Below are positions 10,848 to 32,509 of a DNA stretch of 37,366 nt, one piece after another. How positions within the stretch are numbered: position 1 is the stretch's first letter; each line of letters begins with the position of its first letter. Source of the DNA: Alphaproteobacteria bacterium (lineage in GTDB: Bacteria; Pseudomonadota; Alphaproteobacteria; Bin95); contig JAJECZ010000193.1 in assembly GCA_022821735.1 (NCBI GenBank), positions 1 to 37,366 on the forward strand, written 5' to 3'. A model generated the notes under the pieces. It worked only from the letters and a program-made list of their open reading frames with translations, was not told the DNA's origin and did no database searches. Made by a program: the position numbers and the translations under genes.

Positions 10848-10939
10848 GGTTGCGGTCTCCGTCATGGCGAACCGCCCCGGCGCGGGACGGCGGCGGGGCG
10901 GCTTCGGGTTGGATGGAAGGTCGGCGGCCCGGCGGCCAG

Positions 10940-11281
10940 TCAGCCGTCCAGGATGCGGACCCGGGCCCTGCCGTCCTCGACGCGGGCGGCGGGCCGGCCG
11001 TCCGGGCCGAGCCACACGGTCACCAGCGGCGGCTCGCCGCCTTCCGCGAAGCGGTCGGGGACAGGGAGTGACCCTTCGCCCCAGGGATCGCGGCCGGCGC
11101 CCTCGCAGACCGCATCCACATGGGTGTAGGTGACATGATCCGTGCTGCGCCAGCCGGCGGCGTCTTCGTTGGCGGTGCCGATGGCCTTTCCGAGGGCTTC
11201 CTCCAGGCTCCCGGCCTCGACCGTGACGGTATTGGCGTGGTGCGCATAATACCCGCACTGCACGGTCCAGGCCCGGGTCAC
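10940..11281 (-). CDS. Hypothetical protein
   Basis: GTG 11281 overlaps the upstream TGA (GTGA); VTVEAGSLEEALGKAI segment. Confidence 0.65.
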   Translation of the reverse strand: MTRAWTVQCGYYAHHANTVTVEAGSLEEALGKAIGTANEDAAGWRSTDHVTYTHVDAVCEGAGRDPWGEGSLPVPDRFAEGGEPPLVTVWLGPDGRPAARVEDGRARVRILDG

Positions 11282-13056: not shown

Positions 13057-13078
13057 GCGGGACCCTCCGTGACATGCG

Positions 13079-13118
13079 GAAAGAAAGCGCCCCGCCGGGC
13101 GGTGAACCCGGCGGGGCG
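13079..13118 (-). terminator. Rho-independent terminator-like element after parB
   Basis: Perfect 12-bp stem CGCCCCGCCGGG / CCCGGCGGGGCG (13088-13118), then CTTTCTTT on the minus strand. Confidence 0.6.
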
Positions 13119-13139
13119 TCTCGATGGCCGCCGTGGCGG

Positions 13140-15542
13140 TCAGTGGACGCGGCGGAGGAACTCGGGGATCTCCGCCGGGTCCGCGGGCGGGGCGTGGCCG
13201 TTGACCGGACCGGTGTGGATACCGGCGTCGTCCTCCTCGCTGGCCGTGGATGGACCGGTGTCGACCGCTTCGGCAGTGATGCCGTCGCCGGTCTCGTCCG
13301 CAGCGTCATCGCCCGACGGTTCGGCCGACGCGGCATGGCCATTGCCGTCAACCGCAGCCGGAGCGTCCCCAGTTGCGGTGTCGGAGCCGGCGGCCCCTTC
13401 CACGGGTTCCGCTTCGGCGGAGGCCTCGACGGCGTCCGGCGCGGGCTGCGCCTCCGCCGCCGCGTGGTCCACCACGTCGCCGATGCGCCCGGTATCGAAC
13501 GCCCTGAAGCCGGGCGGTGTCCAGGCGAGCGCCGCCGCGTGCATCCCGGCGCTCAACCCCGGCGGGGTGGCGCCGGCCGCGAACGCGGTCTCCATCGCCT
13601 CCGCCAGCACCGGCTTCCTGGTCTTCGCGCGCGCCGACGCCCAGGCGATGCCGAACACCGTGCGGGCGATGTCGAGGATGCGCGCCTTGGCGATCCGCGA
13701 CCACAGCATCGCCGCCGTCGGGCGGACATGCTTCGCGAACTCGATGTCGAGGCGGGCCACCGTGGCTTCGAGCTCGGGACGCGCCTCGGGCTCGAAGGCG
13801 AGTTGCGGCTTTACCGTGCGCGCGACGCAGGCGGCGAACAGCGCCTGCTTCTCGGCCACGGGCAAGGCCCGGAGCGCCGCGAAGGACTCGCCGTCGTCCT
13901 CGATCTCCAGCCAGTCCAACGACAGGCCGGAGCGGTCCTCAAGCATCGCCTCGCCCGGCGACCAGTCGGCGAAACCGGCGTCGTTCATCCGGGTGGTCGG
14001 CCGGTCGGCGGTCTCGCGCACTGCGATGTCGAGCGCATGCGGCGTGTAGCCGCGGGTGAACACGGAGCGCCCCATCTGGAACACCGTGAGGTCGAAGGCC
14101 GCCTCGAAGTCGCCGGCGAGATGCGCCTTGACCAGCGCGGTCCGGATATGCCGCAGGTCGTCGGCCAGCCCGATGCCGACGCCCGCCTCCTTGCGCGCCT
14201 CGGCCTCGCGGTCGCGCGGCGGCGCCATCGGGGTCGAGACCGGCGAACCGGCGTTGTGGACAGCAGGACCGCCGGTGTGGACGCCGTGGGTCGCGGCATT
14301 CGGGTCGTGACCGTTGGCGGCCGGGGAGGCGGCGCCGCCGGCCTCTTCCGGCTTCGGCATGTCCTCGGGCTTCACCAGCCCCTGGATGACCTGCATCGCG
14401 CCGTCATGGCCGACGGTGACGATGCAGCCCGCCATGGCGAGATCCTCTCGCCGGAACACCGCGCGGGCGTCGACGGCGCCCGCGATCTCGTCGAGGCGGG
14501 TCTCGATGGCCTCGGCTTCCGAGACCAGCTCCCCGGTCCACTCCTCATCGTCGATCTCGGCGAGTTCCGCCTGCCGGGCTTCCAGCCTGGCGATCTCGGC
14601 CAGCTCCTCCTCGGTCGGTGTGCCGGGCTCGGGCTCGATGCGGCCGCAACTGGCAGTGTCGCTCCAGTCGACCTCGACCATGGCCATGGCCCACTTCCAG
14701 CGGGTCGCCAGCTCGTCGGCCGCAGCCTGGAGCTTCTGCGTCGCGAGCTTCTCCAGCAGCACCGGGTCCTCGAACCAGACGCCGCTCTCGTCGTCCCGCG
14801 CGAACAGGTCGCGCATGACGGCGCCGCCGGCGGCCTCATAGGCCTCGACGCCGACGAAGCGGGCGATCGCGGTGGCGCCTGGCACCCGCTCCTCGGTCAG
14901 CAGGCGCTTCACCTGCCAGGCCGACGGGCGGTATCCCTGGCCCGCGACCTGCTCCCAGACCGCCATCTGGCGCTCGCGGTCGGCGGTGACGGCGAAGGCC
15001 TTCAGCACTTCGAGGTCGATCTCGTCCGCGCGGTAGGCGTCCAGCAGTTCCGGCGCCGCGTTGCCGAGGCGGAGGCGCTGCTCGACGATGCGCTCGGAGG
15101 CCCCGAAACGCACCGCGATGGCGGAAACCGATTGGCCGGCGTCGGCCAGCTTCGTGAACGCGACCACCTGGTCGGCGGGGTGCATCGCGATGCGGATGAC
15201 GTTCTCGGCGAGCGAGAGTTCGGCGGGGTCGGCGTCGCCGGACCTGACCTGGCAGGGCACCGGATGGTCGGCATCGAACACCTTGTCCTCGACCAGCGCC
15301 TGCATGGCCCTGAAGCGGCGCCCGCCGGCGACCACCGCGTAGCGCTCGGCGCCATCTTCGGCGGAGTCATCGGTGCGGACGACGAGGTTCTCCAGCAGGC
15401 CGAGGGCGGCGATGGAGGCCTTGAGCTCGGCGTCGGCCCGGGGATCGGGCGGGGTCTTGCGGACGTTCTCGGGCGCGAGCGCGAGCCGGCTCAGCGGGAT
15501 CTCCCGGATGAGCGGCCCGGCCCCGGGGGCGATGAAGTTCAT
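13140..15542 (-). CDS. Long ParB/RepB/Spo0J-family protein of the mobile-element type
   Basis: ENVRK, LKASIAALGLLENLVVR, VVAGGRRFRA, SLAENVIR, HTH-like IAVRFGASERIVEQRLRLG; acidic low-complexity tail. Confidence 0.9.
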   Translation of the reverse strand: MNFIAPGAGPLIREIPLSRLALAPENVRKTPPDPRADAELKASIAALGLLENLVVRTDDSAEDGAERYAVVAGGRRFRAMQALVEDKVFDADHPVPCQVRSGDADPAELSLAENVIRIAMHPADQVVAFTKLADAGQSVSAIAVRFGASERIVEQRLRLGNAAPELLDAYRADEIDLEVLKAFAVTADRERQMAVWEQVAGQGYRPSAWQVKRLLTEERVPGATAIARFVGVEAYEAAGGAVMRDLFARDDESGVWFEDPVLLEKLATQKLQAAADELATRWKWAMAMVEVDWSDTASCGRIEPEPGTPTEEELAEIARLEARQAELAEIDDEEWTGELVSEAEAIETRLDEIAGAVDARAVFRREDLAMAGCIVTVGHDGAMQVIQGLVKPEDMPKPEEAGGAASPAANGHDPNAATHGVHTGGPAVHNAGSPVSTPMAPPRDREAEARKEAGVGIGLADDLRHIRTALVKAHLAGDFEAAFDLTVFQMGRSVFTRGYTPHALDIAVRETADRPTTRMNDAGFADWSPGEAMLEDRSGLSLDWLEIEDDGESFAALRALPVAEKQALFAACVARTVKPQLAFEPEARPELEATVARLDIEFAKHVRPTAAMLWSRIAKARILDIARTVFGIAWASARAKTRKPVLAEAMETAFAAGATPPGLSAGMHAAALAWTPPGFRAFDTGRIGDVVDHAAAEAQPAPDAVEASAEAEPVEGAAGSDTATGDAPAAVDGNGHAASAEPSGDDAADETGDGITAEAVDTGPSTASEEDDAGIHTGPVNGHAPPADPAEIPEFLRRVH

Positions 15543-15752
15543 GCGAACCTCCGTCAATGGTGTGTGGAAATGCACGGAAGCGGGGTTCGGCGAGCGACTC
15601 CCGCCGGCCCGCGTCCGCGCCGCCCGGAACCGCGCCATGCTCCCCTCCGGACGGAGCAGGCGGCAGGGCGGGCAGCGAAAGCACGGCGGCGGCGCGCGCC
15701 GGGGAGGGGGCCGGAAGCGGCGTCCGGGGCCGCAGGTCCGGGAGGACCGCCG

Positions 15753-16421
15753 TCAGCCGTGCAGGGAGGGAAGGTTCATCGGATATGGCCGGCGAACCAA
15801 CCGCCAGCCGTCCAGGCAGGGTTCGACCGCAATGGCGTCCCGCGCCGCGGCATCGTGGCGGCCGAGCGCGGCGAGCGCCTCCGCCCGGTCGCGATGCACC
15901 GGGATCGCCGCGTCCAGCCGGTCCGCCACCGCGAGCCACCAGTCCACGATCTCGCACACCCCGACCGGGGTATGGGGTGCCCTGTCGAAGGCCACGGCCC
16001 CGTCGCCGGCGAACATCCGCTTGCCGCCGCGGCAGCCCCAGATCTCCGGGTGGCGCTCCGCCCACCCCTTCAGCGCAGGCGCGTTCATGAACCCCAGGTC
16101 GCGGGCGAGCGCATGGCCGCCCTCGAAATACATGAGCGGCGTCACCGTCCCGTCGGACCTGGCGGCCATCAGGGTCTCGCCGGCATCGTCCGGGGGGAAA
16201 TCCGCATCGCGCCGCCAGCTCACCGCCGCATGGTCCATCAGGCGGCCGAGCGCATACCAGCCGCCATGGCAGGCGAGCGTGCGGCAGCCGTCGCGGCGCA
16301 CGATGCCCCAGTCCATGGGAGCCTCCCGGTCGCCGCCATGGGCGTCGACGGCGCGCCGGATGCGCGCCATGGCGAGGCGGACTGCCCCGGGCGAGGGATG
16401 GACGGTCTGCATGTCTGTCAT
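15753..16421 (-). CDS. Hypothetical protein with a CxTxACxxGW motif
   Basis: ATG 16421 (or 16412) with GGGAG RBS; DGCRTLACHGGWY. Confidence 0.6.
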   Translation of the reverse strand: MTDMQTVHPSPGAVRLAMARIRRAVDAHGGDREAPMDWGIVRRDGCRTLACHGGWYALGRLMDHAAVSWRRDADFPPDDAGETLMAARSDGTVTPLMYFEGGHALARDLGFMNAPALKGWAERHPEIWGCRGGKRMFAGDGAVAFDRAPHTPVGVCEIVDWWLAVADRLDAAIPVHRDRAEALAALGRHDAAARDAIAVEPCLDGWRLVRRPYPMNLPSLHG

Positions 16422-16498
16422 CTCCCGGTCGGTGAGGTTGCCGTTCGGTCGGACCCGCTGACTGCCGTGTCGCGCCTGCGCAGCTTGGACGGCCTTCG

Positions 16499-16988
16499 TC
16501 ACGTCCCGTCTCCGGCGCCGGGCTCGACAAGGTGGACATAGGCGAGCTCGGCAATGCGGCGTTCGGCGTCGGCGAGGGGGCGCAGCGGCTCCGCGCTCAT
16601 CTCCCGGTATGAAAGGCCCAGCACAATCGGCAGCGCGCCGAGGCTCCATATGGCGTCCGTCCGCCGGCCGCGCTCGCGGGTCGATATCCAGTCGAGCAGG
16701 CGCCCGCCGAGCCAGACCGCCACCTCGCGGGTGCGGTCCGGGCGGTAATACCGCACGGCGCCGAAGCTTGGCGGGCGCGCTTGCCGGGCCAGGACCTTGC
16801 CGGTCTCCTCCTCATAGCGGCGGACGGCCTCGGCGAAGTCCGCGCCGGGGCTGTCCCATTGGGGCCCCTGCATGCGCCAGAGGTACTCCTGGCCGGTCAG
16901 CATCATGAAGGCGTCGAGCCGGTCCTCGGGGCCGCGCTCGGCGGAGAATGCGGGCGGCGCGTTCGGTGGGGTCGGGGCGCTGAGCCAT
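16499..16988 (-). pseudogene. Hypothetical gene apparently interrupted by a 1-nt frameshift
   Basis: Strong RBS AAGGAGG with ATG 16988 (MAQRPDPTERAARILRRARP). The protein-like continuation (EDRLDAFMML...) is in another frame, joined by removing one base of the GGGG run at 16928-16931. Confidence 0.5.
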
Positions 16989-17121
16989 GCCGGCCTCCTT
17001 CTTGCGGAACCTGCCCGCCCGGCGCTGGCCCTTGCCTCCCGATGGCTGGACGCGGGCTCGCGGGCCGGGCCGGTCAGCCGGTGCAGATGCGGTCGAGGGC
17101 ATCGGCCTCGAAATGCAGGCC

Positions 17122-17361
17122 TCACGCCTGCCGCCCGTCGTGATCGACCAGGGTCATGCCCGGCGTCACGGAGACGAACAGGGGCGTAATCAGGTAGTCC
17201 GGTTCGCCGCCTTCCTGCTGTGGCGGACACCGGCTGACGGCGGCGATGGCGGCGGCCGGCTCCCCCGAGACGAAACAGGAGAACAGGCAGAAACTCCCGG
17301 CCTCGCCTCCGGTCAGCGCCTCGAACGCGCGGCGGTGCTCCTCAGTGATGTTGGTCGACAT
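17122..17361 (-). CDS. Small hypothetical protein, possibly DUF6117-like
   Basis: ATG 17361 with GGAG RBS; AFEAL..G..G.F.LFSC...GEP.A.I.AV...DY.ITPLF pattern. Confidence 0.65.
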   Translation of the reverse strand: MSTNITEEHRRAFEALTGGEAGSFCLFSCFVSGEPAAAIAAVSRCPPQQEGGEPDYLITPLFVSVTPGMTLVDHDGRQA

Positions 17362-17802
17362 GGCGGCGGTCTCCCCGGCGGCGGCGCGGGGGACCGCCTC
17401 TCGGGCCCCCGGTCCGCCCGGGAAACGCCATCCACGACCTCCAGGCGCCGTGCAGCCTATTGGCGGCCGGAGAGCGCGGAGGCGCAGGAAGGCGGGCTGC
17501 GATCGGCCCCGGTCGCGAGGCCGCTTGCCGGACGGCAGGGAAACCGGGCGCATTGCCGGAGATACCGGCGGGCCTGCCGGCCGGTTCCGGCCGCCGGAAC
17601 TTCAACCGGAATGCACCTTGGCCCGGCCGTCGAACTGACCGGTCAGGCGAGGTCGCCGTGTAGGCGTCCGAACTCCTGCATCGGTTGCTCCGGCGACGAC
17701 AACGCCAGGCGCAGCCGCAATGTCGCATCACGAACGGCCGCAAATCATGCAACTGTGAACCGGTCCACACGGAAAACCGGACATGCCGGGAGGAAACAGC
17801 GC

Positions 17803-18618
17803 ATGACAGGCCGTCGCCTTGTTGAAAGACCTGCCTTTCGGATAACCGCGATTGCAGCCTTTGCGTTCCTTGCCCCGTTCGCTTCCCTGCCACAGACGCA
17901 GGCGGCGGACTCGCCCTGGTATCTGGGCTTTCAGGTTCCGGTCATGTTTATCGACGACACGGAGTCGAGGACGACAGGCAGCAACACGATCCAGGGCCAT
18001 GCGCTGCCTTACAGCGCGAGGGCCACCTCCGAATACAAGGCCGGTTTCAAGCTCGCCGGCATAGTGGGCTATGAGTTCGGCGGGAACCTGCGCGTCGAGG
18101 GCGAACTGTTCTATGCGCGGGCCAGGGTGGACAGGCAGATTTACGGCAGCATCGTCTCGGCGGGAAATCCGGTTCCCGTCAGGGTGAATGTTCCGATCTC
18201 CGGCAGCGCCAGCCAGACGGGCGCCATGGCGAATATCTGGTTCGACATTCCGACGGACACCGACTGGACCCCTTATGTCGGCGGCGGCGTCGGCCTCATC
18301 CGGGTGGACCAAGGCGATCTGGAATACGACGCCAACACGCTGGCGAACAGGCTCGCAAAACTGCAGAACCCGAATGCGCCCGATTTTCCGCCCGGCTTTG
18401 TCCCGGAGATTTCATCGACCGATACCGCGTTCGGCTATCATTTTGGCGCCGGCGTCGGCTACCGGCTCAACGACAGGACGGTCTTGCAGTTCGGCTACCG
18501 CCTGCAGGCTGCGAATGACCTGGAGTTCGACGGCCGGAACGCCTTCGGCAACAGCATCGATGTAAAGACGGAACTGCGGGCGCACCTGTTCGAAATCGGG
18601 GTGCGGATGCGGTTTTGA
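17803..18618 (+). CDS. Outer-membrane beta-barrel protein (OMP_b-brl / Msp4-Opa-like)
   Basis: Signal-peptide-like N-terminus ending QTQA; GIVGYEF..LRVEGE, MANIWFDI, PYVGGGVG, YHFGAGVGY; C-terminal Phe (GVRMRF). Confidence 0.88.
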   Translation: MTGRRLVERPAFRITAIAAFAFLAPFASLPQTQAADSPWYLGFQVPVMFIDDTESRTTGSNTIQGHALPYSARATSEYKAGFKLAGIVGYEFGGNLRVEGELFYARARVDRQIYGSIVSAGNPVPVRVNVPISGSASQTGAMANIWFDIPTDTDWTPYVGGGVGLIRVDQGDLEYDANTLANRLAKLQNPNAPDFPPGFVPEISSTDTAFGYHFGAGVGYRLNDRTVLQFGYRLQAANDLEFDGRNAFGNSIDVKTELRAHLFEIGVRMRF

Positions 18619-19092: not shown

Positions 19093-19524
19093 CCGCCGGC
19101 GACAAACCCGTCGGCTCCGCGTGCGGGACGCAGCAAGGAATGGCACGAAGGTGGAAACAGCACAGGGACAGACAAAGAGCGCCTCCACGTCGAATCCGTG
19201 CGCTTGCGACACGATGACGGATGTCACCGCCCACTCGTCCATCCGGTACAGGGAATGCAAGCAGAGCGCCAACTTGGGCTCCCTGAGCGCTCCCCAGCCG
19301 CCCCGGCGTGACAGAACCGGCAGAAATGTGCCTTCACGGGTCTAGAGGGAAACGGCATGTCCTCAGGTAGTCCAGCCATTCATGCCAACAGTAAACCACC
19401 GAAGGGTCACCCCGACCGTCACCTTACATTGCCAAGGTGGACACGAACCGTCAGAAATGCGATCAAGGTGGTCGATGACGTTGAAGTATTCCACTGACGC
19501 GCAGCTCTTGCCAGGAACCGACAA

Positions 19525-20907
19525 TTGGATGCAGCTAGGGCGCAGCGAATCTTCAGCGACCTCCAAGGCGTATCCGTCGGCGGATGGATTGTAAGCCGGT
19601 ACATCGGCCATGGTGGATCAGCAGTCGTCTTGGAAGGTCGCCGAGGAGGTGTTGTCTCTGCATTAAAGTTGATCGACCCCGAACTTGTTGAACGATTTGG
19701 GAAAGAACGACAAATAGCTCGCATTCGCCGAGAAGGTGAGCTAATTGCACACGACAATCCATATTTGGTTAAAATATACGATGCCAACGTGTGTTTAGAG
19801 ACCGACTACCTTTATGTGGCCATGGAATTGCTAGAAACCCCAACCCTGACAGACTTGATTCCTGATTTCCCTCGTGACAAAATTCTCCCTATACTTGAAC
19901 AAGTAGCTCATGCCGCCAAATACCTGGAAGCGAAAAATTTTGCTCATAGAGACATTAAACCGGATAACGTTTCAATCACCGCAGATTACAAGACAGCTAA
20001 ACTTCTTGATCTTGGCATTATTCGTCCCGTGCTAATCGAGAACACCGGCAACGTTACTGAAGATGCCTTTATTGGTACCACTCGGTACAGCTCTCCAGAA
20101 TACTTAACTCGTGAAGGAGATGGGGACAGCCCATGCCGCTGGCGCTCCTTAACCTTCTATCAACTAGGAGCGCTTCTACACGACATGATAATGAGGCGAC
20201 CGCTTTTTCATGACATTGATCACCCCCGAACCCGGCTCACTGACGCGGTCCGCTACACTACACCCGCAATCGAGTGTGCCGAGGTACACCCTAGGCTTGT
20301 GTCTCTAGCGAAGTGTTGTTTGCACAAGAACTGGCGTCTTCGATTAAATCTAGTAACTTGGGACGCCTTTTCAACGAATCCCAGGGCAATTGATGCTCGT
20401 TCGGCGAAACAGAGGGTACTCGACCGCGTTGAGGCGGGACGAGGCTCTGCCGCTGAGCCGGAAACGCCGGTAGCAGTGCGTTCTCAAAGGAGTGTAGTGG
20501 CGGGCATTCGTGCTCATATGGCCAATACCATTCATCAATCTTGTACAGAGTCTGGGGCTTTTCCGCCCATCGCGATCAATGATCTGGGAGACCCTGATCA
20601 ACCATGGCTCATCATGCGCGCTGGCCCTTCCCAACAACACGCATTGGCGGATGTTCTGATTGTCGGGTTTCTTCTAGAAGTCCTCGATGAGACTGGCGTG
20701 TACGTTCGGATTAGCGCAGTATCAGCTCTCGGAGAGTCTCAGTTTCATGCTGAAATGCCGGAGCTTTTGCAGGTCTACTCGGGTGAAGTGACGTCGCCGC
20801 AACTACGATCCGAAGTTGACAGCTATATGTTTCTGGCTTTCGATCATGCCCAGAGAAGTATTACTCATCGTGAGTCGAATGTGCTGTCACTAGAGGTGCC
20901 GCAATGA
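19525..20907 (+). CDS. Hanks-type Ser/Thr protein kinase with unknown C-terminal domain
   Basis: IGHGGSAVV, ALKLI, HRDIKPDNV, DLG, GTTRYSSPE. Confidence 0.92.
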   Translation: MDAARAQRIFSDLQGVSVGGWIVSRYIGHGGSAVVLEGRRGGVVSALKLIDPELVERFGKERQIARIRREGELIAHDNPYLVKIYDANVCLETDYLYVAMELLETPTLTDLIPDFPRDKILPILEQVAHAAKYLEAKNFAHRDIKPDNVSITADYKTAKLLDLGIIRPVLIENTGNVTEDAFIGTTRYSSPEYLTREGDGDSPCRWRSLTFYQLGALLHDMIMRRPLFHDIDHPRTRLTDAVRYTTPAIECAEVHPRLVSLAKCCLHKNWRLRLNLVTWDAFSTNPRAIDARSAKQRVLDRVEAGRGSAAEPETPVAVRSQRSVVAGIRAHMANTIHQSCTESGAFPPIAINDLGDPDQPWLIMRAGPSQQHALADVLIVGFLLEVLDETGVYVRISAVSALGESQFHAEMPELLQVYSGEVTSPQLRSEVDSYMFLAFDHAQRSITHRESNVLSLEVPQ

Positions 20908-22073
20908 CAAATGTATTCGAAACCTGGTGGCGTGAGCCTTCGGAACTAGACCACGAGCAGGGGAATGTTATTTCTCTACCACCGGATGGCAGTTATCTTG
21001 TGAAGGGCCCACCGGGCAGCGGGAAGACAAACCTCCTGCTTCTTCGGGCCAATTACGTCACACTCAGGGAACATTCTAATCTTGTGGTTGTAACGTTCAA
21101 CCGGACGTTGAGGGAGTTTATTCAATCTGGTGCCCAAAGGTACTCTTTTGAGCCAAACCGCATTGTGACAGTAAGGCAGTTTTTCAACGAGCTGCTAAAG
21201 GAGGCAAACCACAGCTATGAAGAGGCTGGAGATTTCGGAGAGATGCGGCGGGCTAGGTTGGAAGCTGTTCAGGAGATCGTAGCTAATAGAGGTGGCGCAA
21301 TTTTTGATGTAATCTTGCTGGATGAGGCACAAGACTATGTGTCTGGCGAGATAGAGGTGTTTCGGTCACTTTGCCATGATCTGTTTATGGTAGCGGATTC
21401 TCGGCAACAAATATATCCAGGTGATACGGATATGGGGTTTCTTGAAGATAAGGTTGATGAGCAAATCGAGTTGACGCGTCATTATCGGAACGGTTTGCCT
21501 ATATGTCAAGTCGCGGACGGAATTGGAGGCACGTTCAGTCGCCCCTATACAGCGATTTCACCAACATGCAATTACAATTCTCCGGACCTTCAACCATCAG
21601 TGGAGATTTTTCGCGGAAACTTTGATACACAATGCGAAGAGATAGCTCGCCGGCTACAGAACCAACGAAGAGCGTACCCGGAGGCCGTTCTCGGAGTAAT
21701 TTGCCCGCGACTTAGCGAGGTGAGCCGTATCAGTGAGTTCCTGTCGCGGACGGAGTTGGCGGATCTGGTGTGTGTCCAAACAAGGGAGGATGGGTATCAA
21801 CCGGTGGATCCGAGCAAGCCAATCTGGGTGTCCACGGTGCATAGCGCGAAGGGCTTGGAATTTCGAGCATTGCACTTCGCATCTGCTGAAATCGTCACCC
21901 ATTTTGGCGCGGAACAGAAACGCTTGACCTACACCGCTGTGACTAGGGCGAAGACGGCGCTGAATGTCTATCATGACAGAGCGTTGCCGGGGTACTTTGA
22001 CGCAGCGTTGAATGCTGTTCGACCAGTTGCGAGGCCGAACGCGGATATCGGGGTCGCTTTTGGCACGAAGTGA
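20904..22073 (+). CDS. Minimal superfamily-1 (UvrD/Rep-like) helicase/ATPase
   Basis: GPPGSGKT, LLDEAQD, LTRHYRN, STVHSAKGLEF, YTAVTRAK; only 389 aa; ATGA overlap with the kinase stop. Confidence 0.9.
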   Translation: MTNVFETWWREPSELDHEQGNVISLPPDGSYLVKGPPGSGKTNLLLLRANYVTLREHSNLVVVTFNRTLREFIQSGAQRYSFEPNRIVTVRQFFNELLKEANHSYEEAGDFGEMRRARLEAVQEIVANRGGAIFDVILLDEAQDYVSGEIEVFRSLCHDLFMVADSRQQIYPGDTDMGFLEDKVDEQIELTRHYRNGLPICQVADGIGGTFSRPYTAISPTCNYNSPDLQPSVEIFRGNFDTQCEEIARRLQNQRRAYPEAVLGVICPRLSEVSRISEFLSRTELADLVCVQTREDGYQPVDPSKPIWVSTVHSAKGLEFRALHFASAEIVTHFGAEQKRLTYTAVTRAKTALNVYHDRALPGYFDAALNAVRPVARPNADIGVAFGTK

Positions 22074-23409
22074 AACATACTGGGTGGCGGACTTAAGCCG
22101 CGAAGACATCGTTGAGGTTGCTAGGGGAGGCCCTGCGAACCCGGTGCGAGTGCCTGCCTCGCAGATCCCTAGAATGGATGCGGGACCAGACGGGGCATTG
22201 GCGGTATGGCGTGCAGTATCCAAAGGTGAGCTCGGTTGCCTGCCCCAAGTCATTATTGCAGACCAAGGAGTTCTTGAGGACTTCACCGCGTGGGCAGCGA
22301 CCTATTTCCCAAGCTTGGGTCCCCTAAGTGCCCAAACCCGGTTGCTGACGCCAACGGTCTTGCGAGAGGCGCGTAGGAGAGAGAGCGCGACCAACTGGAG
22401 AAGGCTAGCGGCGTGCGCGGTGGCGCTCTGCTTTGGGGAGGTACTAAGTTATACAGATCAGTCCAGACGAGCGACGGATATTACCTTTATCATGTGCCGG
22501 AGTACACTTTCCTTTACCTTGATACGCAGTGCAATACTGGGTTTTCAACCAAGTAGAATAAAGGAAATAGCGCAATCATGGAGAAGTGTTAGGAGTAGGC
22601 TAGGTCAGTCCACTAACGTGGAGTCTTCACAGCTCGTTCAAGAAATTATATTTGACTTGGCCAAGAAGGCCGAGGTGGGCACAACAGCAAAAGGAAGGGC
22701 ACTGCTGGGTTACGATCTCGATGTGCCTTCAATTCTTGGTAGATATGGCGTATATGGCGTTGGTAATGAAGGGCCTTTATTTTCTAGCCGGCAAAAGCAT
22801 GAACGAAGCCTGACTGCGGAGGAAAGGGTCGAAATATTTGATCGTGTGAGCACGGCGCTGGTGCATGAAGGAGGGCGGGGAGATCTAGAGAAAGGGTTGA
22901 TCTTGGCGACTCTGGCATACTGGTGCAGAGCAGGCTTTCCCCAGCAGTTAGCGATTATGGCGCCCTATCAGGAGGTGTTTCCGCAAAGCACCATATGGTT
23001 AGCCGCGCTACAGCAAGAAAGCGCAAAATCGGATGCGCTAGCGATTGGAGAAGGGATTGGCTGGCGTTTGGCTAGGGAGTTATTTCGCGCCGGGGATGTA
23101 TTTGCCACGCCAAGTTGCGATATATCGGAATTGGAGCTCGAGGTGTTGATGAGAGGAAGCAACTTCAAAGGCTTGACGACTGCCTCGGATAGAGCCCGAC
23201 TGGAAGTGGAATTGTTTCCAGGGGTTACAACGGTTGTGAGAACCGAACACTACTCGGTTCAAAGTCCGGGTGAGGTGCCGATAACTGGCAACACTCTTCA
23301 TAGTGCTTTCGAAGAAAAAGAAAGAGAGAGGGCATTGAAGTCAGTGGAGAGTTCGTTACAGAGAGCCGTTAGGGATATTCAAAGGTTGCGGAGACAAAAA
23401 AGAAGGTAG
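22060..23409 (+). CDS. Hypothetical protein, third gene of the kinase-helicase operon (start TTG 22060 or ATG 22012)
   Basis: Long open frame in low-GC DNA overlapping the helicase stop; coiled-coil-like basic C-terminus; no motif recognised. Confidence 0.8.
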   Translation: MARSETYWVADLSREDIVEVARGGPANPVRVPASQIPRMDAGPDGALAVWRAVSKGELGCLPQVIIADQGVLEDFTAWAATYFPSLGPLSAQTRLLTPTVLREARRRESATNWRRLAACAVALCFGEVLSYTDQSRRATDITFIMCRSTLSFTLIRSAILGFQPSRIKEIAQSWRSVRSRLGQSTNVESSQLVQEIIFDLAKKAEVGTTAKGRALLGYDLDVPSILGRYGVYGVGNEGPLFSSRQKHERSLTAEERVEIFDRVSTALVHEGGRGDLEKGLILATLAYWCRAGFPQQLAIMAPYQEVFPQSTIWLAALQQESAKSDALAIGEGIGWRLARELFRAGDVFATPSCDISELELEVLMRGSNFKGLTTASDRARLEVELFPGVTTVVRTEHYSVQSPGEVPITGNTLHSAFEEKERERALKSVESSLQRAVRDIQRLRRQKRR

Positions 23410-23537
23410 AGCGGTGTGGGTGTCACCCGGCTCATGGCCTTGACCCCTCAGAATCCATTGGGAGCGATTGCTTGTGGATGCTGATCGGCGTCGAAATAGC
23501 GCGCCGAACAACAAGGGCTGCATTATGCGGTCAAGTA

Positions 23538-24458
23538 TCAACTTTTACCCAGAACATCGGTCAGCTTTTGCGCCTTCTGCAGGCTTGCGAACGACGTGTA
23601 GCGAGGGCTCTGCATGGCACCCTGCGGAGCGTTTCCGTAGGGAATAGGCCCGATAGGCTTGGCGCTCTCCGAAAACACAACCTTGTACTTTCCGCCTTCG
23701 CCATAGGGCTCGATACGGGAGACAGGGGCGTAGTGCGTGATGGCGGAAACAGGCTGCGTGCGATATGCGGCGATGTATTTGATCTTGTCGAGCATGCCGC
23801 CGGAGATGCGAATCGCATACCAACAGTGTTGGCCGAGGAACGTCTCCTCGAACCCGTCCTTCTGGGCCGGAACGATGATCGTGTCGCGCTTCCGGCTTGT
23901 CGGCTGTGCGCTGGACAGAGGATCGGTGGCGAACGGAGCCGCGACCGCCTTCGGGAACTCGAAGGCCCGCAGACCGACCAGAGGAAGAATCTGCAGAATC
24001 TCCTTCATGAATCCTTGGGTGTCTGCCTTCTCGGCTTCAGTCAGCGATGGCTCCTGGGGCGCGTTGCCGTTGTCGAGAAGGGAGCGCCCTGTCTCCACAC
24101 CTCGCTTGACGAGGGCATATTCGAGCCAGGTGACGTGCGCCCGGTTCAGTCCGCCGGAGGTCGAAACGAACACCGCGGCCCAATCCCAGAAGTCCTTGTC
24201 CTTGTGGTGCGAATCGATGCGCCCCTTCACGCCGTCGGCCTGCCCGATATAGAGGGTGGGCAGATCGTCATCCTCGTTGCGGTAGCCGACGAGAACGTAG
24301 ATGCCGGTGCGCTGCATTTCGCTGCGCTGGCGAACCTCGGACCAGTCGGACCTGCGAAAAACCAGCCCAAGGCCGGTCCAGTTCATGCGGTCGATCAGGC
24401 GGACCCCTTCCGGATCGCCATCAGGGACAAATATGCGGATGGTGAACGGATCAGCCAT
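23538..24458 (-). CDS. GIY-YIG nuclease family protein with extra C-terminal domain
   Basis: GIYVLVG...LYIGQ..G...RI..H; LEY catalytic Glu region; LDN. ATG overlaps the upstream TAA. Confidence 0.88.
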   Translation of the reverse strand: MADPFTIRIFVPDGDPEGVRLIDRMNWTGLGLVFRRSDWSEVRQRSEMQRTGIYVLVGYRNEDDDLPTLYIGQADGVKGRIDSHHKDKDFWDWAAVFVSTSGGLNRAHVTWLEYALVKRGVETGRSLLDNGNAPQEPSLTEAEKADTQGFMKEILQILPLVGLRAFEFPKAVAAPFATDPLSSAQPTSRKRDTIIVPAQKDGFEETFLGQHCWYAIRISGGMLDKIKYIAAYRTQPVSAITHYAPVSRIEPYGEGGKYKVVFSESAKPIGPIPYGNAPQGAMQSPRYTSFASLQKAQKLTDVLGKS

Positions 24459-25648
24459 TATTGTCTCGCGACGAGAGACGCGGAACTTGCTTCGTATCGA
24501 TATTGGGTAATGGTTCCATCCCGGATCTTTTGAACTGCGTCGTCGATGACGTCGAGAGGCACCAGGAACCACTCGCGCGGCACAACCGGATTGCCGAAGC
24601 GGTCTTCGATCTCGATGTCAAGACGCGCCGGCGCGAAGATGCGGTGGATCAACTGCTCCAGCTTCGCGCGGTCGATGTTGTAGAGACTATAGGTGGCGAC
24701 GATCTGGACCTCGGCCATCAGGAACGTCGGGTCGAGCCGGGCGCCGGCGATGCGCGTTTCCACCTTCGCGGTGGTGACGCCGATTTTATGCACGAGGTCA
24801 CGGTTTTCAGCGACGAACGGAATATCCGCCTTGCTCCGCAGCACGTAGATGGTGCCGCTGGCCTCGTCGCCGTCCGCGGTCATGTCAGCAAACAGCGGAC
24901 CCGCCGACGTCTCCAGTATCCGTCTGCCCTTCTCGTCCTTGTGCAAGGCCCGCTGGAGCGAACGCCTGAGCATGTTGCTCTCGGTGCCGTTATCAAAGAT
25001 CACGCGCAGCCGCGCGTCGCGGTCGCCGTAACGCTGCGTGAACTCCTCGCCCATCTCAGCGACATAGGCTTTCTGCCCGCCAATGATGAAGAACCGGCCG
25101 GGCTCGATGTCGGCCTGGATGCCAAGGGGACGGGTTTCCCGGAGACCGGCGTCCAGTTCCTTCTGGACTTGCTCGAAGAGCGGACGGAACGTCTCGAAGT
25201 CCTCGCATTTGCTGCGGGTCGCGATCTCCTCAGCGGCGCGTTTCTCTGCGCTCGATCGCACGTGGCGGAGTTCGCCAATGTCCGGCGCGGCAGACTCGAC
25301 GCCGAGCTCCGCCAGCAAGGCGTCGTCGTCCATACCGTCCGGGGACGGGGAGGCGGTTTCGGCTGGATGGCTCAGGAGATCCTGATGGTCGAGAGAGGAT
25401 AGCAATTCCCGACATTTATCCTGCTCGCGGATACGGTCCAAACGCACCGCATAGAGACGTTCGAAGATGTCGCCGTCCTCGCTGTGGCGCGGAGCGTGGC
25501 CATGCGCCTCGACGAAACGCTGGATTTCTTCGAAGCCCGCGATGATCCTCTCTTCTTTCGGCGTGCGGCTTGCCGCCTTCTCCGGCTCGACGACGACGCC
25601 GAGGTCCGCGAGCAGGGCGTCGTCCTCGTCGGTGAACTTCCTATCCAT
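24458..25648 (-). CDS. YeeC-like T5orf172 (GIY-YIG superfamily) protein
   Basis: GTIYVLRS, HKIGVT, VETRI, KLEQLIHRIF, PREWF; position after the YeeB-like helicase. Confidence 0.88.
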   Translation of the reverse strand: MDRKFTDEDDALLADLGVVVEPEKAASRTPKEERIIAGFEEIQRFVEAHGHAPRHSEDGDIFERLYAVRLDRIREQDKCRELLSSLDHQDLLSHPAETASPSPDGMDDDALLAELGVESAAPDIGELRHVRSSAEKRAAEEIATRSKCEDFETFRPLFEQVQKELDAGLRETRPLGIQADIEPGRFFIIGGQKAYVAEMGEEFTQRYGDRDARLRVIFDNGTESNMLRRSLQRALHKDEKGRRILETSAGPLFADMTADGDEASGTIYVLRSKADIPFVAENRDLVHKIGVTTAKVETRIAGARLDPTFLMAEVQIVATYSLYNIDRAKLEQLIHRIFAPARLDIEIEDRFGNPVVPREWFLVPLDVIDDAVQKIRDGTITQYRYEASSASLVARQ

Positions 25649-27686
25649 CGGCGGCCGCAGCCTTCATGCGGGCGAGGAACGCCACGCCCTCTGCCATGCG
25701 CTTCTCCCATGGATCCGCTGACGTGATCGACGGCAGGCGGCCGCGCTCCTGCTTGAACCGGAGGGCTCGCCGCGCGAGGTCGCGCGCCTCCTCCGGAGTG
25801 AGTTGGATTTTCTTCGCCGTGATGATGGCGGCGACCTGTTTCAGGCTCTCCTCGCTCATCGCTTTGGCCAGGATCGCGTAGGCCTCGCCGAAGGGGTTGA
25901 TCCTGTCGATCAGGTCGATTTCGAGGTCGCGCACGTCCATGGCGAATTTCCGGACACCGTCGATCAGCGCGGTGCCGCCGTTCGACTGTGCCTGCGGCTC
26001 ATCGAGCACGGCCTCCTTCGCCTTCTGGGTCAGGTTCAGCGCGGCGATGGCGTGCTGGCGAACCGCCTCCCGGTCTTCTTCGGAGAGTTCGGGATATCGA
26101 TCCGTGACGATCTTGCCCATACGGACCTGGGTCAGTTCCTCAGGCACGAGTTCCTCGTCGAACAGCCCGCGCTCTACGGAAGTCCTGTCCTGCGCGAACG
26201 CAGCGATCACCTCGTTCAGATCCTCCCGGCAGATGCGCTCAGCCTCCTTGCCCTTCGGTGCCACCAGTCCCTTGATCTCGATGTGGAACTGGCCGGTATC
26301 GTGATTGAAACCGACATTGCACTTCTCCGGGTCGTAACCTTCGTCGCCGTAGTCGGCGCCCTCGACCGGACCGCTTTCCGGTCTCTTCGGCGTGAAGTTG
26401 AAACGGGGCGCGAGCACCTGCTCCATCAACAGGCTCGCCGCGATAGCCTTGAGCGTATCGTTCACGGCCTCGGTGACCGCCTCTTCCGAGGCGTCGGGCT
26501 CGGCGATCAGGTTGGTGAAGCGGGCGCGGGCCTTACCAGGCGCATCGCGGGTCGCGCGGCCGATGATCTGCACGATCTCGGTCAGGCTGGAGCGGTAGCC
26601 CACCGTCAGCGCGTGATTGCACCAGATCCAGTCGAAGCCCTCCTTGGCCATGCCGAGGGCGACGATGATGTCGACATGGTCGCGGTCGCTCATCCGGTCC
26701 GTGTCCCGGAGCGCGGCAGCGACCGGCTCCCGCCTCACAGGGTCATCGTCGACCAAGTCAGCGATCCGCAGAATGCGGCCTCCGGGCATCCTGACCAGCT
26801 GAAATCCGGTCGTCGCGTCCGTGCCTTCCCACTCGCCCAGCTCCTCGATGATGTGCTCCACCTCACGAATCTTGTCCTTGGTGCTCTCGCGCGAATTGAC
26901 GCTGGGGATGTGGATGATCGTCTTCTCGCCCGGATCGAGCACCCGCAGGATGTCGTCGGCATAGTTCCCTGTGTAGAAGAAATAACCGATGTCGAGCCGC
27001 TTCAGATACTCATAGCCGTTGAGCTGCTCGTAGTAGGTATATGTGACGGTCTCGAACCGCGCCTCGTCGTGGGGCATAAGCACGGGCTGGGCATCGCCCC
27101 GAAAGTACGATCCCGTCATGGCCACGATATGTGTCCGGTCGCGGGCAATGAGCTGTCCGACATGCTCGCCCAGCCGATTGTCGGGATTGGCCGAGACGTG
27201 GTGGAACTCGTCGACCGCGATCAGTCGGCCGTCGAAAGCATCCGCGCCGAACCGTTCCATGGCGAAGCGGAAGGTGGCGTGGGTGCATACCAGGACGCGG
27301 TCATCGCTCTTGAGAAAGGTCTTGACGGAATTGACCTTGCCGCCGTCCGTGCCCGGAGCGTTGCAGAGGTTCCATTTCGGGGCAACGGTCCAGTCGGCCC
27401 AGAAACCGAACTCGCGCAACGGCGCGTCAGCGAAGCTCGCCCCTATGGTCCTCTCGGGCACGACAATGATTGCCTGACGAAGGCCCTGGTTGTGCAGTTT
27501 GTCGAGCGCGATGAACATCAGCGCCCGGCTCTTGCCCGATGCCGGTGGCGACTTGATCAGGAGGTACTGCTCGCCGCGCTTCTCCCACGCCCTCTCCTGC
27601 ATCGGGCGCATGCCGAGTTCGTTGGATCGGGTGGAACTGCCGCTGCAGGCGTACGTGACGGAAACGGAGGGGGCGCTTTCGTTCAT
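25641..27686 (-). CDS. YeeB-like SF2 DExH helicase
   Basis: SPPASGKS, DEFHH, MTGS, KEGFD, QIIGRATR; start ATG 27686 overlaps the upstream stop. Confidence 0.9.
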   Translation of the reverse strand: MNESAPSVSVTYACSGSSTRSNELGMRPMQERAWEKRGEQYLLIKSPPASGKSRALMFIALDKLHNQGLRQAIIVVPERTIGASFADAPLREFGFWADWTVAPKWNLCNAPGTDGGKVNSVKTFLKSDDRVLVCTHATFRFAMERFGADAFDGRLIAVDEFHHVSANPDNRLGEHVGQLIARDRTHIVAMTGSYFRGDAQPVLMPHDEARFETVTYTYYEQLNGYEYLKRLDIGYFFYTGNYADDILRVLDPGEKTIIHIPSVNSRESTKDKIREVEHIIEELGEWEGTDATTGFQLVRMPGGRILRIADLVDDDPVRREPVAAALRDTDRMSDRDHVDIIVALGMAKEGFDWIWCNHALTVGYRSSLTEIVQIIGRATRDAPGKARARFTNLIAEPDASEEAVTEAVNDTLKAIAASLLMEQVLAPRFNFTPKRPESGPVEGADYGDEGYDPEKCNVGFNHDTGQFHIEIKGLVAPKGKEAERICREDLNEVIAAFAQDRTSVERGLFDEELVPEELTQVRMGKIVTDRYPELSEEDREAVRQHAIAALNLTQKAKEAVLDEPQAQSNGGTALIDGVRKFAMDVRDLEIDLIDRINPFGEAYAILAKAMSEESLKQVAAIITAKKIQLTPEEARDLARRALRFKQERGRLPSITSADPWEKRMAEGVAFLARMKAAAADG

Positions 27687-28543
27687 GCGGGCCTGACCCT
27701 CCGGTCGAAGCGGCGAAGGAACAGGCGTGCCGTCACGAGCGAAATCTGAAGCCTGAAGGTTGCATCTTCTTCCTCGGACAGGCCCGGATGTCCGCCATGG
27801 GGATGCATTCTGCTCATCAACCCCTGAACGTATTGTGGCTTTTGGTTGTTGGGATTCCACTCGTTGTAGTCGATGAGCAGGAACGGTGGCTGAAGGCGGC
27901 CGAGATAGTCCCGTTTAGCCTTGCCGTCACCGCTACCAGCATAACCCAACCCGGTGGCGATTTCGTTGAGGTAACTTTCATGGAAGTTTCGCAACTCTCC
28001 GTTGGCCGATGACCACTCCCCACGTCCGAATGCTGAGAGTGCCTGAGTCAAATGCCCCTTCGCAACGGTAAGGCCGTGTCGGTTCAATAGCAGTGCAATT
28101 TCGGTTTCAGCTTCCCGGAAATCGAGTTCGGGAACGTCTGAAGGCAGCATCCGCACAAGCTGAACGGTCGTTTCCGTTTGCTCGCTTGGCCAATAGGCTT
28201 CGGAGTCGACCTCTTCCTCCGTCGTGCGAACTTCGAACCCGTCAAATCGCAAGCCTGCAACGAGCTTCCTCCAGGCAGCCGAATGTTGCATGTACTCGGC
28301 CGCCGAAATCGCGATTTCGACTACTGCGCGGCTCAAGTGTACCCGTCCACCTTCTGTCAGGACCTCAATTTCCTCCTCGCAGGCGATACGCGCCCAGTCC
28401 GCAACCCGCGCCGGTTTGCTCGACGCTCTGCACCTTCCTGCTATACCCCACTCGACCTCCAGCACCTCCATGGCGCCGTGTGACTGGAAACTCGAAACGA
28501 CCTCGGCAGCAGCGACGACGGTCATGCGACTGAACTCGCTCAT
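27683..28543 (-). CDS. Hypothetical protein with a possible Abi_C/HEPN-like C-terminal domain
   Basis: 286 aa, ATGA overlaps on both ends; HLTQA...SSANGELRNFHES and RMHPHGGHPG...EEDATF helical pattern. Confidence 0.7.
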   Translation of the reverse strand: MSEFSRMTVVAAAEVVSSFQSHGAMEVLEVEWGIAGRCRASSKPARVADWARIACEEEIEVLTEGGRVHLSRAVVEIAISAAEYMQHSAAWRKLVAGLRFDGFEVRTTEEEVDSEAYWPSEQTETTVQLVRMLPSDVPELDFREAETEIALLLNRHGLTVAKGHLTQALSAFGRGEWSSANGELRNFHESYLNEIATGLGYAGSGDGKAKRDYLGRLQPPFLLIDYNEWNPNNQKPQYVQGLMSRMHPHGGHPGLSEEEDATFRLQISLVTARLFLRRFDRRVRPA

Positions 28544-31423: not shown

Positions 31424-32509
31424 TCAGGCCCGCTCGGAAAGGAGCGCCAAGAGCGGCGGGTTGATGTAGAGGTTTTCGCGCCCCGCTTTGATCTCCTCGA
31501 GGAGGCCTTCGGCCGTGAGGGCTTTCAGGTAAATGGCGGCCGTCTGGCGCTTGGCTATATCCGCCTTGACCACGTCGCCGATCCGGCAGTAGGGATGCAC
31601 GAAGATCAGTTCCGCGAGTTCCCGGGAATAGATCCTCGGCATCCTCTGTCGAATTGCGGCGCCCGTCTCGTCGAGAAGCTCACGGATCGCACGGATTTTG
31701 GCCGTAGTCCATTCGGCTGTCGATCTGATAGCCTCGAGAATGAACAGTATCCACGTTTCCCAGGCCTGTCGGGTAGTGACCTCGAGCAGATACCGGTAGT
31801 AGAGCGCCTTGTTCCGGATGATGTGTCGGCTGAGATAGAGCACGGGTATGTCCAGCAGGCCCTTGTCGACGAGATAGAGTAGGTTCAGCACGCGTCCGGT
31901 TCGTCCGTTTCCGTCGACGAACGGGTGGATCGCCTCGAACTGATAATGCATGACGGCAAGGCGGATCAGCGGGTCGATCTCCCCATCCTCGTGAATGTAG
32001 CGCTCCCAGTTGGCCAGCTTGCTACGGAGAACGTCCTCTCCTTCCGGCGGCGTGTAGATGACCTCGTCGGTCGCATCGTTCACCAACGCCGTTCCCGGCG
32101 TGGTGCGAATGTCGAGTTCCACCCCCTTGATCGTTCGACAGACCTCGACAGCCATGGTGGTCGCAACCGGCCGCTGCCCCAGCATCTCGAAACCTCGGTG
32201 CAACGCGGTGCGGTAGCGCAGAGCTTCCTTGGTGGCAGGGTCGGCTCGACCCGCCGCGTCGTTGGCATAGCGGAACAGCCGGTCAGCCGTCGTGACGATG
32301 TTTTCGATCTCGGAACTCGCCTGCGCTTCGAGCAGGGGGATCGAGTTGATCAACATCGCTTGGTTCGGGATGAGATTCCCGGAGACGCGGAGCTCGGCCA
32401 GTGCCGCGCGCGCGGCAATGCAACTGCGGAGAATGGCCTTGGTTTCCGTTTCCGATGCCGGCGGCAGGTCCGGAAGGTCGTTGAAGGGACAGCCGGGGTC
32501 GAAGGTCAT
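31424..32509 (-). CDS. fic: Fic-family protein adenylyltransferase (SoFic type: Fic_N + Fic + wHTH)
   Basis: Catalytic HPFVDGNGRTGR, inhibitory SSEIEN, C-terminal RQTAAIYLKAL..GLL HTH. Confidence 0.94.
   Translation of the reverse strand: MTFDPGCPFNDLPDLPPASETETKAILRSCIAARAALAELRVSGNLIPNQAMLINSIPLLEAQASSEIENIVTTADRLFRYANDAAGRADPATKEALRYRTALHRGFEMLGQRPVATTMAVEVCRTIKGVELDIRTTPGTALVNDATDEVIYTPPEGEDVLRSKLANWERYIHEDGEIDPLIRLAVMHYQFEAIHPFVDGNGRTGRVLNLLYLVDKGLLDIPVLYLSRHIIRNKALYYRYLLEVTTRQAWETWILFILEAIRSTAEWTTAKIRAIRELLDETGAAIRQRMPRIYSRELAELIFVHPYCRIGDVVKADIAKRQTAAIYLKALTAEGLLEEIKAGRENLYINPPLLALLSERA

Follow-up and report, generated by a model that had tools for sequence, protein, structure and literature searches.

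A kinase, a minimal helicase and a protein without known family: an apparently undescribed, widespread candidate defence cassette of bacteria

The stretch of DNA analysed here, called the window, comprises 37,366 nucleotides (nt) of contig JAJECZ010000193.1 from the Alphaproteobacteria bacterium assembly GCA_022821735.1, and carries at positions 19525-23409 three overlapping genes encoding a Ser/Thr kinase, a minimal UvrD-like helicase and a protein without known family, hereafter protein X. We find that this trio is a conserved, co-inherited unit and not a chance neighbourhood, that its invariant core consists of the helicase and X, and that the kinase looks like an exchangeable module and not an obligatory controller. 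The trio is an apparently undescribed, widespread candidate defence cassette, and we lean modestly towards reading it as a modular one, in which the helicase-X core works with an exchangeable first gene, usually the kinase, against phages or other mobile DNA.

The operon, its conservation and its exchangeable first gene

A preliminary description of this DNA, made from the letters alone, had proposed three co-oriented overlapping genes for a Ser/Thr kinase, a minimal UvrD-like helicase and an unknown protein. The open reading frames (ORFs) lie exactly as it stated, and the first two assignments agree with Pfam matches given below (lengths in amino acids, aa; SF1, superfamily 1):

19525-20907, plus strand: gene 1, kinase, 460 aa with a TTG start (ORF list)
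19591-20349, plus strand: kinase catalytic domain, residues 23-275 (extent of the Pfam Pkinase match)
20377-20904, plus strand: kinase C-terminal domain, residues ~285-460, of no known family and fast-evolving in the alignment
20904-22073, plus strand: gene 2, minimal UvrD/HelD-like SF1 helicase or ATPase, 389 aa (ORF list)
22012-23409, plus strand: gene 3, protein X, 465 aa from the ATG at 22012 or 449 aa from the TTG at 22060

When the sequence was read directly, the kinase stop and the helicase start were seen to share the ATGA at 20904-20907. The helicase stop codon (22071-22073) falls inside gene 3, as had been described, and gene 3 overlaps the helicase gene with either start. The description needs one correction here: since X residues 1-21 are occupied in only 9% of the 122-sequence family alignment and the X profile match in the source genome begins at 22078, the true start of gene 3 may be the TTG at 22060, with a 14-nt overlap, instead of the ATG at 22012, with a 62-nt overlap. 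A promoter and terminator scan around the operon gave counts no higher than in shuffles.

Whether this gene order is kept across genomes, a check that the preliminary description had called for, was examined in 80 loci (L002-L081), the best 80 of 232 stretches encoding helicase relatives in one-genome-per-species contigs, together with L001, the closest copy of the trio, in an Alphaproteobacteria metagenome-assembled genome (MAG). A locus was counted as having room on one side of the helicase if at least 1.3 kb of contig lay there. X, detected by its family profile, is encoded directly downstream of the helicase in 76 of the 77 loci with room, and a kinase of the same architecture is encoded directly upstream in 70 of 76; the automated count was 68, to which the kinase ORFs of L060 and L074, which had failed the spacing rule, were added. 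All three genes were detected in 67 of the 80 loci, and they abut or overlap in the relatives as they do in the window. The distance matrices of kinase, helicase and X correlate pairwise with r 0.80-0.82 (59 loci, Mantel p 0.001), and the three genes therefore travel and diverge together. Eight copies are fragmented (L023, L058, L061, L069, L074, L075, L076 and L081) and represent pseudogenes or assembly errors.

The sole locus with room but without a downstream X is L079, which holds the most distant helicase relative. At 699-4854 of that locus the helicase (27% identity) is followed by genes for a 623-aa protein without a match and for a PIN_8 protein with a weak match to the PcrA/UvrD Tudor domain; here the minimal helicase may be part of a different system. 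No universally conserved fourth gene was found among the loci, only small subclade-specific ORFs. Thus an extra co-oriented gene of ~150-170 aa lies directly 3' of X in L038 (5927-6442), L041 (4550-5062) and L043/L044 (7460-7915), and one of ~170-200 aa lies directly 5' of the kinase in L050 (3055-3603), L051 (3087-3590) and L054 (2993-3601). Each of these small genes is homologous within its own subclade, and those of L038, L041, L043, L050 and L054 have no Pfam match.

The order of the three genes stands, and the idea of a fixed three-gene module has to be modified: no kinase precedes helicase-X in six of the 76 loci with room, and in four or five of them another gene occupies that place. 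It is on this account, the kinase being missing while X stays downstream, that we regard helicase and X as the core. The six loci carry the following:

L045, gene-1 place: 552-aa protein whose end abuts the helicase start; PADLOC LmuA match (5e-66, model positions 16-474 of 827) and FAD-oxidoreductase Pfam matches
L013, gene-1 place: 522-aa AAA_16/NACHT-like ATPase; PDC-M28C match, 8e-19
L019, gene-1 place: unannotated protein of ~280 aa, homologous to the upstream ORF of L017, which is truncated by the contig end
L031, gene-1 place: 371-aa protein without a Pfam match, whose ORF overlaps the helicase start
L056, upstream, 4011-4894: CapP-like M78 peptidase (PADLOC capP 4e-26, Peptidase_M78 7e-20), preceded by a 136-aa ORF
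L022, upstream: 289-aa ORF without a Pfam match, ending 337 nt before the helicase

L017 has less than 1.3 kb of room upstream and is thus outside the 76-locus count. From their matches, the L045 protein is predicted to be monooxygenase-like and of LmuA type and the L013 protein to be STAND-like. The N-terminal domain of LmuA is the exchangeable effector of Lamassu, with a monooxygenase among its variants, according to Millman et al. (2022, bioRxiv 10.1101/2022.05.11.491447). When the alternative gene-1 proteins were searched with a profile of the kinase C-terminal domain, nothing matched even at E 10, so that their sequences give no sign of a docking domain in common with the kinase. Separately, the position of the M78 peptidase gene of L056, directly before a kinase-less helicase-X pair, hints at CapH/CapP-type transcriptional control of that copy.

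The three proteins and the direction of signalling

The gene 1 product matches Pkinase (PF00069, E 3e-24, residues 23-275). Among 64 aligned members of the kinase family, K48, H141-R142-D143, K145, N148, D162 of the DLG motif and P191-E192 are each at least 95% conserved; the catalytic set is intact, and because of this conservation the kinase looks active. The remaining ~180 C-terminal residues have no match in Pfam, PADLOC or NCBIfam, and the mean frequency of the commonest residue falls from 0.54 over residues 1-284 to 0.26 over the C-terminal domain in the same 64 members. The L001 kinase, with 62% identity over 458 residues, likewise has a TTG start, in the position that corresponds to the one in the window.

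The gene 2 product matches Pfam UvrD-helicase and UvrD_C_2 (E ~1e-11). In an alignment of 20 relatives, G35-K41 (Walker A), D140-E141 (DEAQD), R167-Q168, Y194-R195, H313/K316-E319 and T347-K350 are invariant or near-invariant, and among these blocks we take SF1 motifs III, IV, V and VI to be represented. The protein is thus predicted to be an intact SF1 ATPase. Its closest solved sequences are HelD/helicase IV (6wvk, 6e-18), then PcrA, UvrD and GajB (8e-14), and its 389 aa are about half to three quarters of the length of these proteins (about 500-770 aa). A search for relatives returned 1806 at E<=1e-3 among 7999 scored candidates, and most of the 120 listed are likewise ~380-390 aa long.

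By analogy with Lamassu (an ATPase core with the effector LmuA), with Gabija (the short UvrD-like GajB) and with kinase-based defences, we infer a defence function, the formation of a complex, a direction of signalling and targets as follows. The helicase-X core would survey invader nucleic acid or a nucleoprotein complex, using ATP, and on detection would switch on the gene-1 module. In the window, the kinase would then phosphorylate host and/or phage proteins and arrest the infected cell or the development of the phage, in a manner resembling abortive infection. That the signal runs from helicase-X to the gene-1 module is put forward tentatively, as a possibility that falls somewhat short of probable.

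None of the Pfam, PADLOC or NCBIfam models matches protein X itself, and across 100 members of its family no Pfam family was hit repeatedly, even at E<=1. A word-indexed search found only eight X proteins, the one of the window included, and when 1.84 billion cluster representatives were searched with a profile, 800 matched at E<=1e-3, 500 of them at E<=1e-10; these figures count clusters at 50% identity, and 800 is a lower bound. The matches listed are mostly about 430-480 aa long, and no longer or fused forms were seen at 845-2410 aa, which is weak evidence that there are none. A first structural model of X, built on eight close homologues alone, was unusable (predicted local distance difference test, pLDDT, 44) and was replaced by an AlphaFold2 model from 122 sequences with pLDDT 87.1 and a predicted template modelling score (pTM) of 0.83. 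The model comprises an alpha/beta domain (~22-125), a large helical domain (127-361), a beta-hairpin (396-410) and a long C-terminal helix (430-464). Foldseek with this model returned nothing at E<=1e-3 in PDB or BFVD, a PDB sequence-profile search with X gave nothing below E 0.25, and a search of the ESM Atlas gave no usable match. These results agree with the preliminary view of X as an unknown protein.

In a comparison with 48,161 PDB representatives, which effectively covered only the helical domain 127-361, seven of the top nine rows were chains of the ADP-ribosylglycohydrolase (ARH) family (8za7_A, 6dre_A, 6g1p_A, 1t5j_A, 6g28_A, 2cwc_A and 3g9d_A). They align with VIA-align Z 6.4-7.4 and a root-mean-square deviation of 4.4-5.2 A over 185-210 residues. 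Scores of this size may mean only a common arrangement, a caution that applies up to Z 8 in general and up to ~13 where the proteins are helical. Two further ARH entries appeared at non-significant rank in the Foldseek search of BFVD. At the sequence level, hhalign of X against an ARH alignment of eight genomic PF03747 matches gave a probability of 0.09%, and PF03747 did not match any of the 100 X members at E<=1. We therefore describe the resemblance between the X model and the ARH family as a weak, unconfirmed fold likeness. In the family alignment E143 and E375 are invariant and W66, P78, A93, W94, P104, R110, T165, S167, W190, E270, G308, P324, W329, G350, P367, D370, E400 and P403 are at least 90% conserved, and the acidic residues in this set are compatible with an enzyme.

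These features of X bear on an alternative in which the same cassette is wired in reverse. The kinase would be a sensor or regulator that phosphorylates the helicase or X, its fast-evolving C-terminal domain would recognise a phage product, and X would be a metal-dependent hydrolase effector that the helicase delivers to, or loads on, nucleic acid. The invariant E143 and E375 with the near-invariant D370, E400, E270, T165 and S167 form a pattern typical of enzymes, the ARH enzymes to which the helical domain weakly aligns are metal-dependent, and no part of the kinase varies more than its C-terminal domain. L056 has helicase-X without a first-gene protein of the usual kind and L022 offers only its 289-aa ORF; if gene 1 were the sole effector, these pairs would be left without one, which favours X in that role. 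STAND-like ATPases, such as the one predicted in L013, are usually sensors, which also speaks for a sensing first gene. However, the hhalign probability and the range of Z, which may reflect only a common helical arrangement, argue against a hydrolase of this family, and the L045 replacement matches the effector part of LmuA and not a sensor. X is moreover the fastest diverging member of the trio, with a mean p-distance of 0.80 versus 0.65-0.69 for kinase and helicase, which is more usual for a recognition component. We regard the reversed wiring as rather unlikely.

Mobility and surroundings of the cassette

The trio had been described as more AT-rich than its flanks and as horizontally acquired. 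In 1-kb windows, guanine-plus-cytosine (GC) content is 0.50-0.56 across 19501-23500 versus 0.67-0.75 across 1-17000, and the trio has ~50% GC in a source genome of roughly 72%. The lower-GC tract (0.50-0.65) spans from ~17.5 kb to the end of the window and thus exceeds the trio, which is therefore one part of a larger foreign island. X is present in one of 37 genomes of the host's family, that one being the genome of the window. The closest copy (L001; 62%, 76% and 51% identity for kinase, helicase and X) begins 195 nt after an integrase gene. Horizontal acquisition of the trio as a mobile operon is supported by these observations.

Carriers are labelled in their records as Alpha-, Beta- and Gammaproteobacteria, Myxococcota, other former deltaproteobacteria, Planctomycetota, Acidobacteriota, Bacteroidales, Bacillota, Eremiobacterota, Dehalococcoidia and Leptospira, and the cultured ones include strains of Pseudomonas, Rhizobium, Brevundimonas, Achromobacter and Burkholderia, among them Pseudomonas fluorescens PS655 with locus L050 and Brevundimonas vesicularis PY2210 with locus L035. 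Helicase identity to the window copy does not track taxonomy, planctomycete copies at 44% standing above most proteobacterial ones. A scan of genome contigs with the X alignment gave one locus, and nothing was found when genome contigs were scanned with the single X sequence or metagenome contigs with the X alignment. Helicase relatives occur on four plasmid or megaplasmid records, and a search of plasmids with X gave no match at 1e-5; in phage records, tblastn found no match to the helicase at 1e-10. On the Rhizobium leguminosarum plasmid, RefSeq names the genes 'protein kinase' and 'ATP-binding domain-containing protein', and directly after the helicase gene follows a 419-aa 'hypothetical protein', which by its position is a candidate X. 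This copy adjoins genes for a DUF1837 protein and a DEAD helicase, which we take to be a Hachiman pair, for a RelA/SpoT protein and for DarT. On a Cupriavidus record the helicase gene is followed by 640 nt without a listed gene and then by a 242-aa hypothetical protein, the gene tables of PLSDB being incomplete.

To the left of the trio, the window holds:

300-16650: conjugative/integrative-element-type block of host-like GC, from Pfam matches, encoding a 1502-aa AAA_34/Helicase_C_4 protein (strawberry-notch-like), SRAP, RadC, DUF2958 and DUF6197 proteins, a 592-aa HATPase_c protein and an 832-aa ParB_N protein
16987-18618, plus strand: 543-aa ORF with an OMP beta-barrel domain (Pfam, 6e-16), at the GC transition, pointing to a Gram-negative host

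To its right, the window holds:

23538-24572, minus strand: PDC-S14, a candidate single-gene defence protein (PADLOC 1e-58), convergent with gene 3
23472-24533, plus strand: ORF of the same size without a match, opposite PDC-S14 and probably spurious
24458-25648, minus strand: T5orf172/MUG113 protein (domain match)
25641-27860, minus strand: DEAD/ResIII helicase with a PMBR repeat (domain match)
27683-28543, minus strand: 286-aa protein without a match
28540-31293, minus strand: MmeI-family type IIG restriction-modification (RM) enzyme, 1e-271
31424-32536: SoFic, 7e-116
32779-35550, minus strand: C-terminal part of Dsr1 (PADLOC/NCBIfam)
35547-36848, minus strand: SIR2, N-terminal part of Dsr1 (PADLOC/NCBIfam)

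The defence island may be cargo of the conjugative or integrative element; no island-border tRNA genes or long direct repeats were found in the window. The RM-like, Fic and sirtuin cluster that had been noted beside the trio is recovered here as the MmeI-family enzyme, SoFic and SIR2/Dsr1, with PDC-S14 in addition. In the window Dsr1 is encoded by two separate genes with a 4-nt overlap, and a similarly split Dsr1 adjoins another copy of the trio in L063 (7630-11056). The four co-directional overlapping genes at 24458-31293 may be one composite RM-linked system.

ORFs flanking the 80 loci on both sides were scanned with PADLOC, 151 of them nearest neighbours and 130 second-nearest, leaving out of the count RecQ and topoisomerase genes shown by Pfam, regulators and proteins in the gene-1 position. 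A known or candidate defence-family gene lies within two ORFs in 18 of the 80 loci, a raw count with no background comparison. Complete neighbours are Gabija in L021 (GajA 5e-267, GajB E 0), IetAS in L073 and PDC-M41 in L076. The others are the split Dsr1 of L063, DRT UG20 (L030), TIR-APAZ and PDC-S32 (L022), DruE (L039), dGTPase and Vsr (L026), PDC-S21 and RmrA (L035), PDC-S37/Hhe (L059), SspH (L071), a UvrD-type helicase matching the RTasHel and GajB models (L025) and RM genes (L004, L005, L011, L037, L054 and L056). The association of the trio with defence genes is suggestive.

Several observations weigh against the reading as a modular defence cassette. The remaining 62 loci have no PADLOC match within two ORFs, again as a raw count with no background comparison. 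HelD, the closest solved relative of the helicase, recycles RNA polymerase and is not a defence protein, and the topoisomerase and RecQ helicase genes beside L001 suit general DNA metabolism on a mobile element no less than defence. L056 and L022 lack a first gene of the usual kind, and in a search of sequencing runs one DNA run, which may be the source, and no RNA run was listed as carrying the sequence.

Most of these points can be read in favour of a module that is not immune at all and serves the maintenance, or the DNA or RNA transactions, of integrative and conjugative elements, for instance a HelD-like ATPase acting on RNA polymerase or the replication fork with a partner and under the control of the kinase. 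Its travel with mobile elements would explain why it often lands near defence genes. The similarity of the helicase to HelD/helicase IV and to PcrA/UvrD, the integrase, topoisomerase and RecQ genes around L001, the 62 loci without a PADLOC match and the AAA_34/Helicase_C_4, SRAP, RadC, DUF2958 and ParB_N genes in the left half of the window all agree with such a role. It accounts poorly, however, for the replacement of gene 1 by defence-type modules (the LmuA-like protein and the PDC-M28C-like ATPase), for complete defence systems directly adjacent to the trio in many unrelated genomes, for the patchy distribution within the host's family and for the very fast divergence of X and the kinase C-terminal domain. 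The trio is also found away from recognisable conjugation genes. We consider a maintenance module very unlikely.

Comparison with named systems, and implications

The trio had been proposed as a new system, and we compared it with the named systems that it most resembles. The kinase matches the PADLOC models mad6 (2e-31), PD-T4-6 (8e-31) and, more weakly, MkoA (2e-8), and also a model named 'C3a189 kinase', for the generic catalytic domain only. The helicase matches 'C3a187 NERD+UvrD' (7e-22), GajB (1.5e-14) and mad8 (2e-6), and its best NCBIfam match is HelD_BACSU (1e-13). These matches would fit a divergent member of Gabija, type I Mokosh, MADS, PD-T4-6/Stk2, BREX type 2/Pgl or TerY-P. They are confined, however, to the generic kinase and P-loop/UvrD domains; none of the PADLOC models matches X, the NCBIfam scores fall far short of their cut-offs, and the operon is without GajA, the MkoB phospholipase D (PLD) nuclease, other MADS genes, PglX/PglZ and TerY/PP2C. 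That the trio is a divergent form of one of these systems is barely credible to us.

The closest parallel in organisation is Lamassu (DdmABC). Both have a conserved ATPase core with a partner and an exchangeable, effector-bearing first protein, and the gene-1 protein of L045 matches the N-terminal, monooxygenase-type effector part of the LmuA model. The cores differ: that of Lamassu is the SMC-family LmuB with LmuC, whereas that of the trio is a minimal SF1 UvrD/HelD-like ATPase with X, and no trio protein matches LmuB or LmuC in PADLOC. The usual first gene differs as well, kinases not being among the LmuA effector domains described in the available portion of Millman et al. (2022).

With Gabija the trio has in common a short UvrD-like SF1 protein without a fused nuclease, as GajB is. 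Its partners, however, are a kinase and X and not an OLD-family GajA, the GajB matches are partial, and no GajA was found in the PADLOC scan of the other genes of the window. The Gabija of L021 is a separate system beside the trio.

Mokosh type I likewise brings a Ser/Thr kinase domain and an SF1 helicase together in a defence system. There the helicase gene itself carries the Ser/Thr kinase domain, so that an Upf1-like RNA helicase is fused to the kinase, and it is paired with a PLD nuclease (Millman et al. 2022, bioRxiv 10.1101/2022.05.11.491447). In the trio, by contrast, kinase and UvrD-like helicase are separate genes and X is added; the MkoA model has 1112 positions, its match (2e-8) covers the kinase region only, and the operon encodes no PLD protein.

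MADS and BREX type 2/Pgl fare no better. The score against antiphage_MADS6 is 36.3 bits versus a cut-off of 460 (NCBIfam), the mad6 match in PADLOC covers model positions 53-301 of 659, which is the kinase domain only, the mad8 match is to the P-loop only, and X matches none of the mad models. BREX_PglW scores 24.3 bits versus a cut-off of 990 (NCBIfam), no PglZ match was found in the window, and the MmeI-type gene of the window is a type IIG RM gene (1e-271) with only weak PglX matches.

PD-T4-6 and Stk2 share with gene 1 that they are Hanks-type Ser/Thr kinases in phage defence, and the Stk2 kinase is reportedly an effector that phosphorylates many proteins, with sensing of a phage product. 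In those defences a stand-alone kinase suffices, whereas the trio kinase shares its operon with helicase-X in 70 of 76 loci and ends in an unrelated C-terminal domain; only the catalytic domain is alike (PD-T4-6 model positions 6-254 of 292). TerY-P consists of TerY (vWA), a PP2C phosphatase and a Ser/Thr kinase; neither a vWA nor a PP2C domain came up when the operon and the genes around it in the window were scanned with Pfam and PADLOC. HelD/DNA helicase IV, finally, is the best match of the helicase both among solved structures (6wvk) and in NCBIfam. The trio helicase is only about half its length, however, the match covers only model positions 510-765 of 779, and the score against HelD_BACSU is 50 bits versus a cut-off of 419, which places the protein outside that family.

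None of the named systems compared here thus fits the trio as a whole, as the preliminary description had surmised. No description of it was found in a full-text literature search, and supplementary tables of candidate systems may still list it.

A broader proposal, which we hold to be somewhat doubtful, is that the trio represents a new class of modular immune system, in which a helicase-X sensing core would drive interchangeable outputs. The main output would be a eukaryotic-like Ser/Thr kinase, and hence a helicase-triggered phosphorylation signal; others would be LmuA-like or STAND-like, and two unrelated defence architectures would be linked through shared effectors.

To our knowledge, few systems of kinase-based immunity have so far been recognised in bacteria. 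Should the cassette prove to protect against phages, it would add a defence family that spans ten or more major bacterial lineages, with a third component that has neither a family nor a significant match among solved structures, and with a Ser/Thr kinase coupled to a helicase as its commonest output. Because it spans just 3.9 kb and is carried by cultured strains, the cassette lends itself to direct testing. Its exchangeable first gene is a natural experiment on how one ATPase core activates unrelated effectors, and one of its variants, that of L045, has an N-terminal effector part in common with LmuA of Lamassu.

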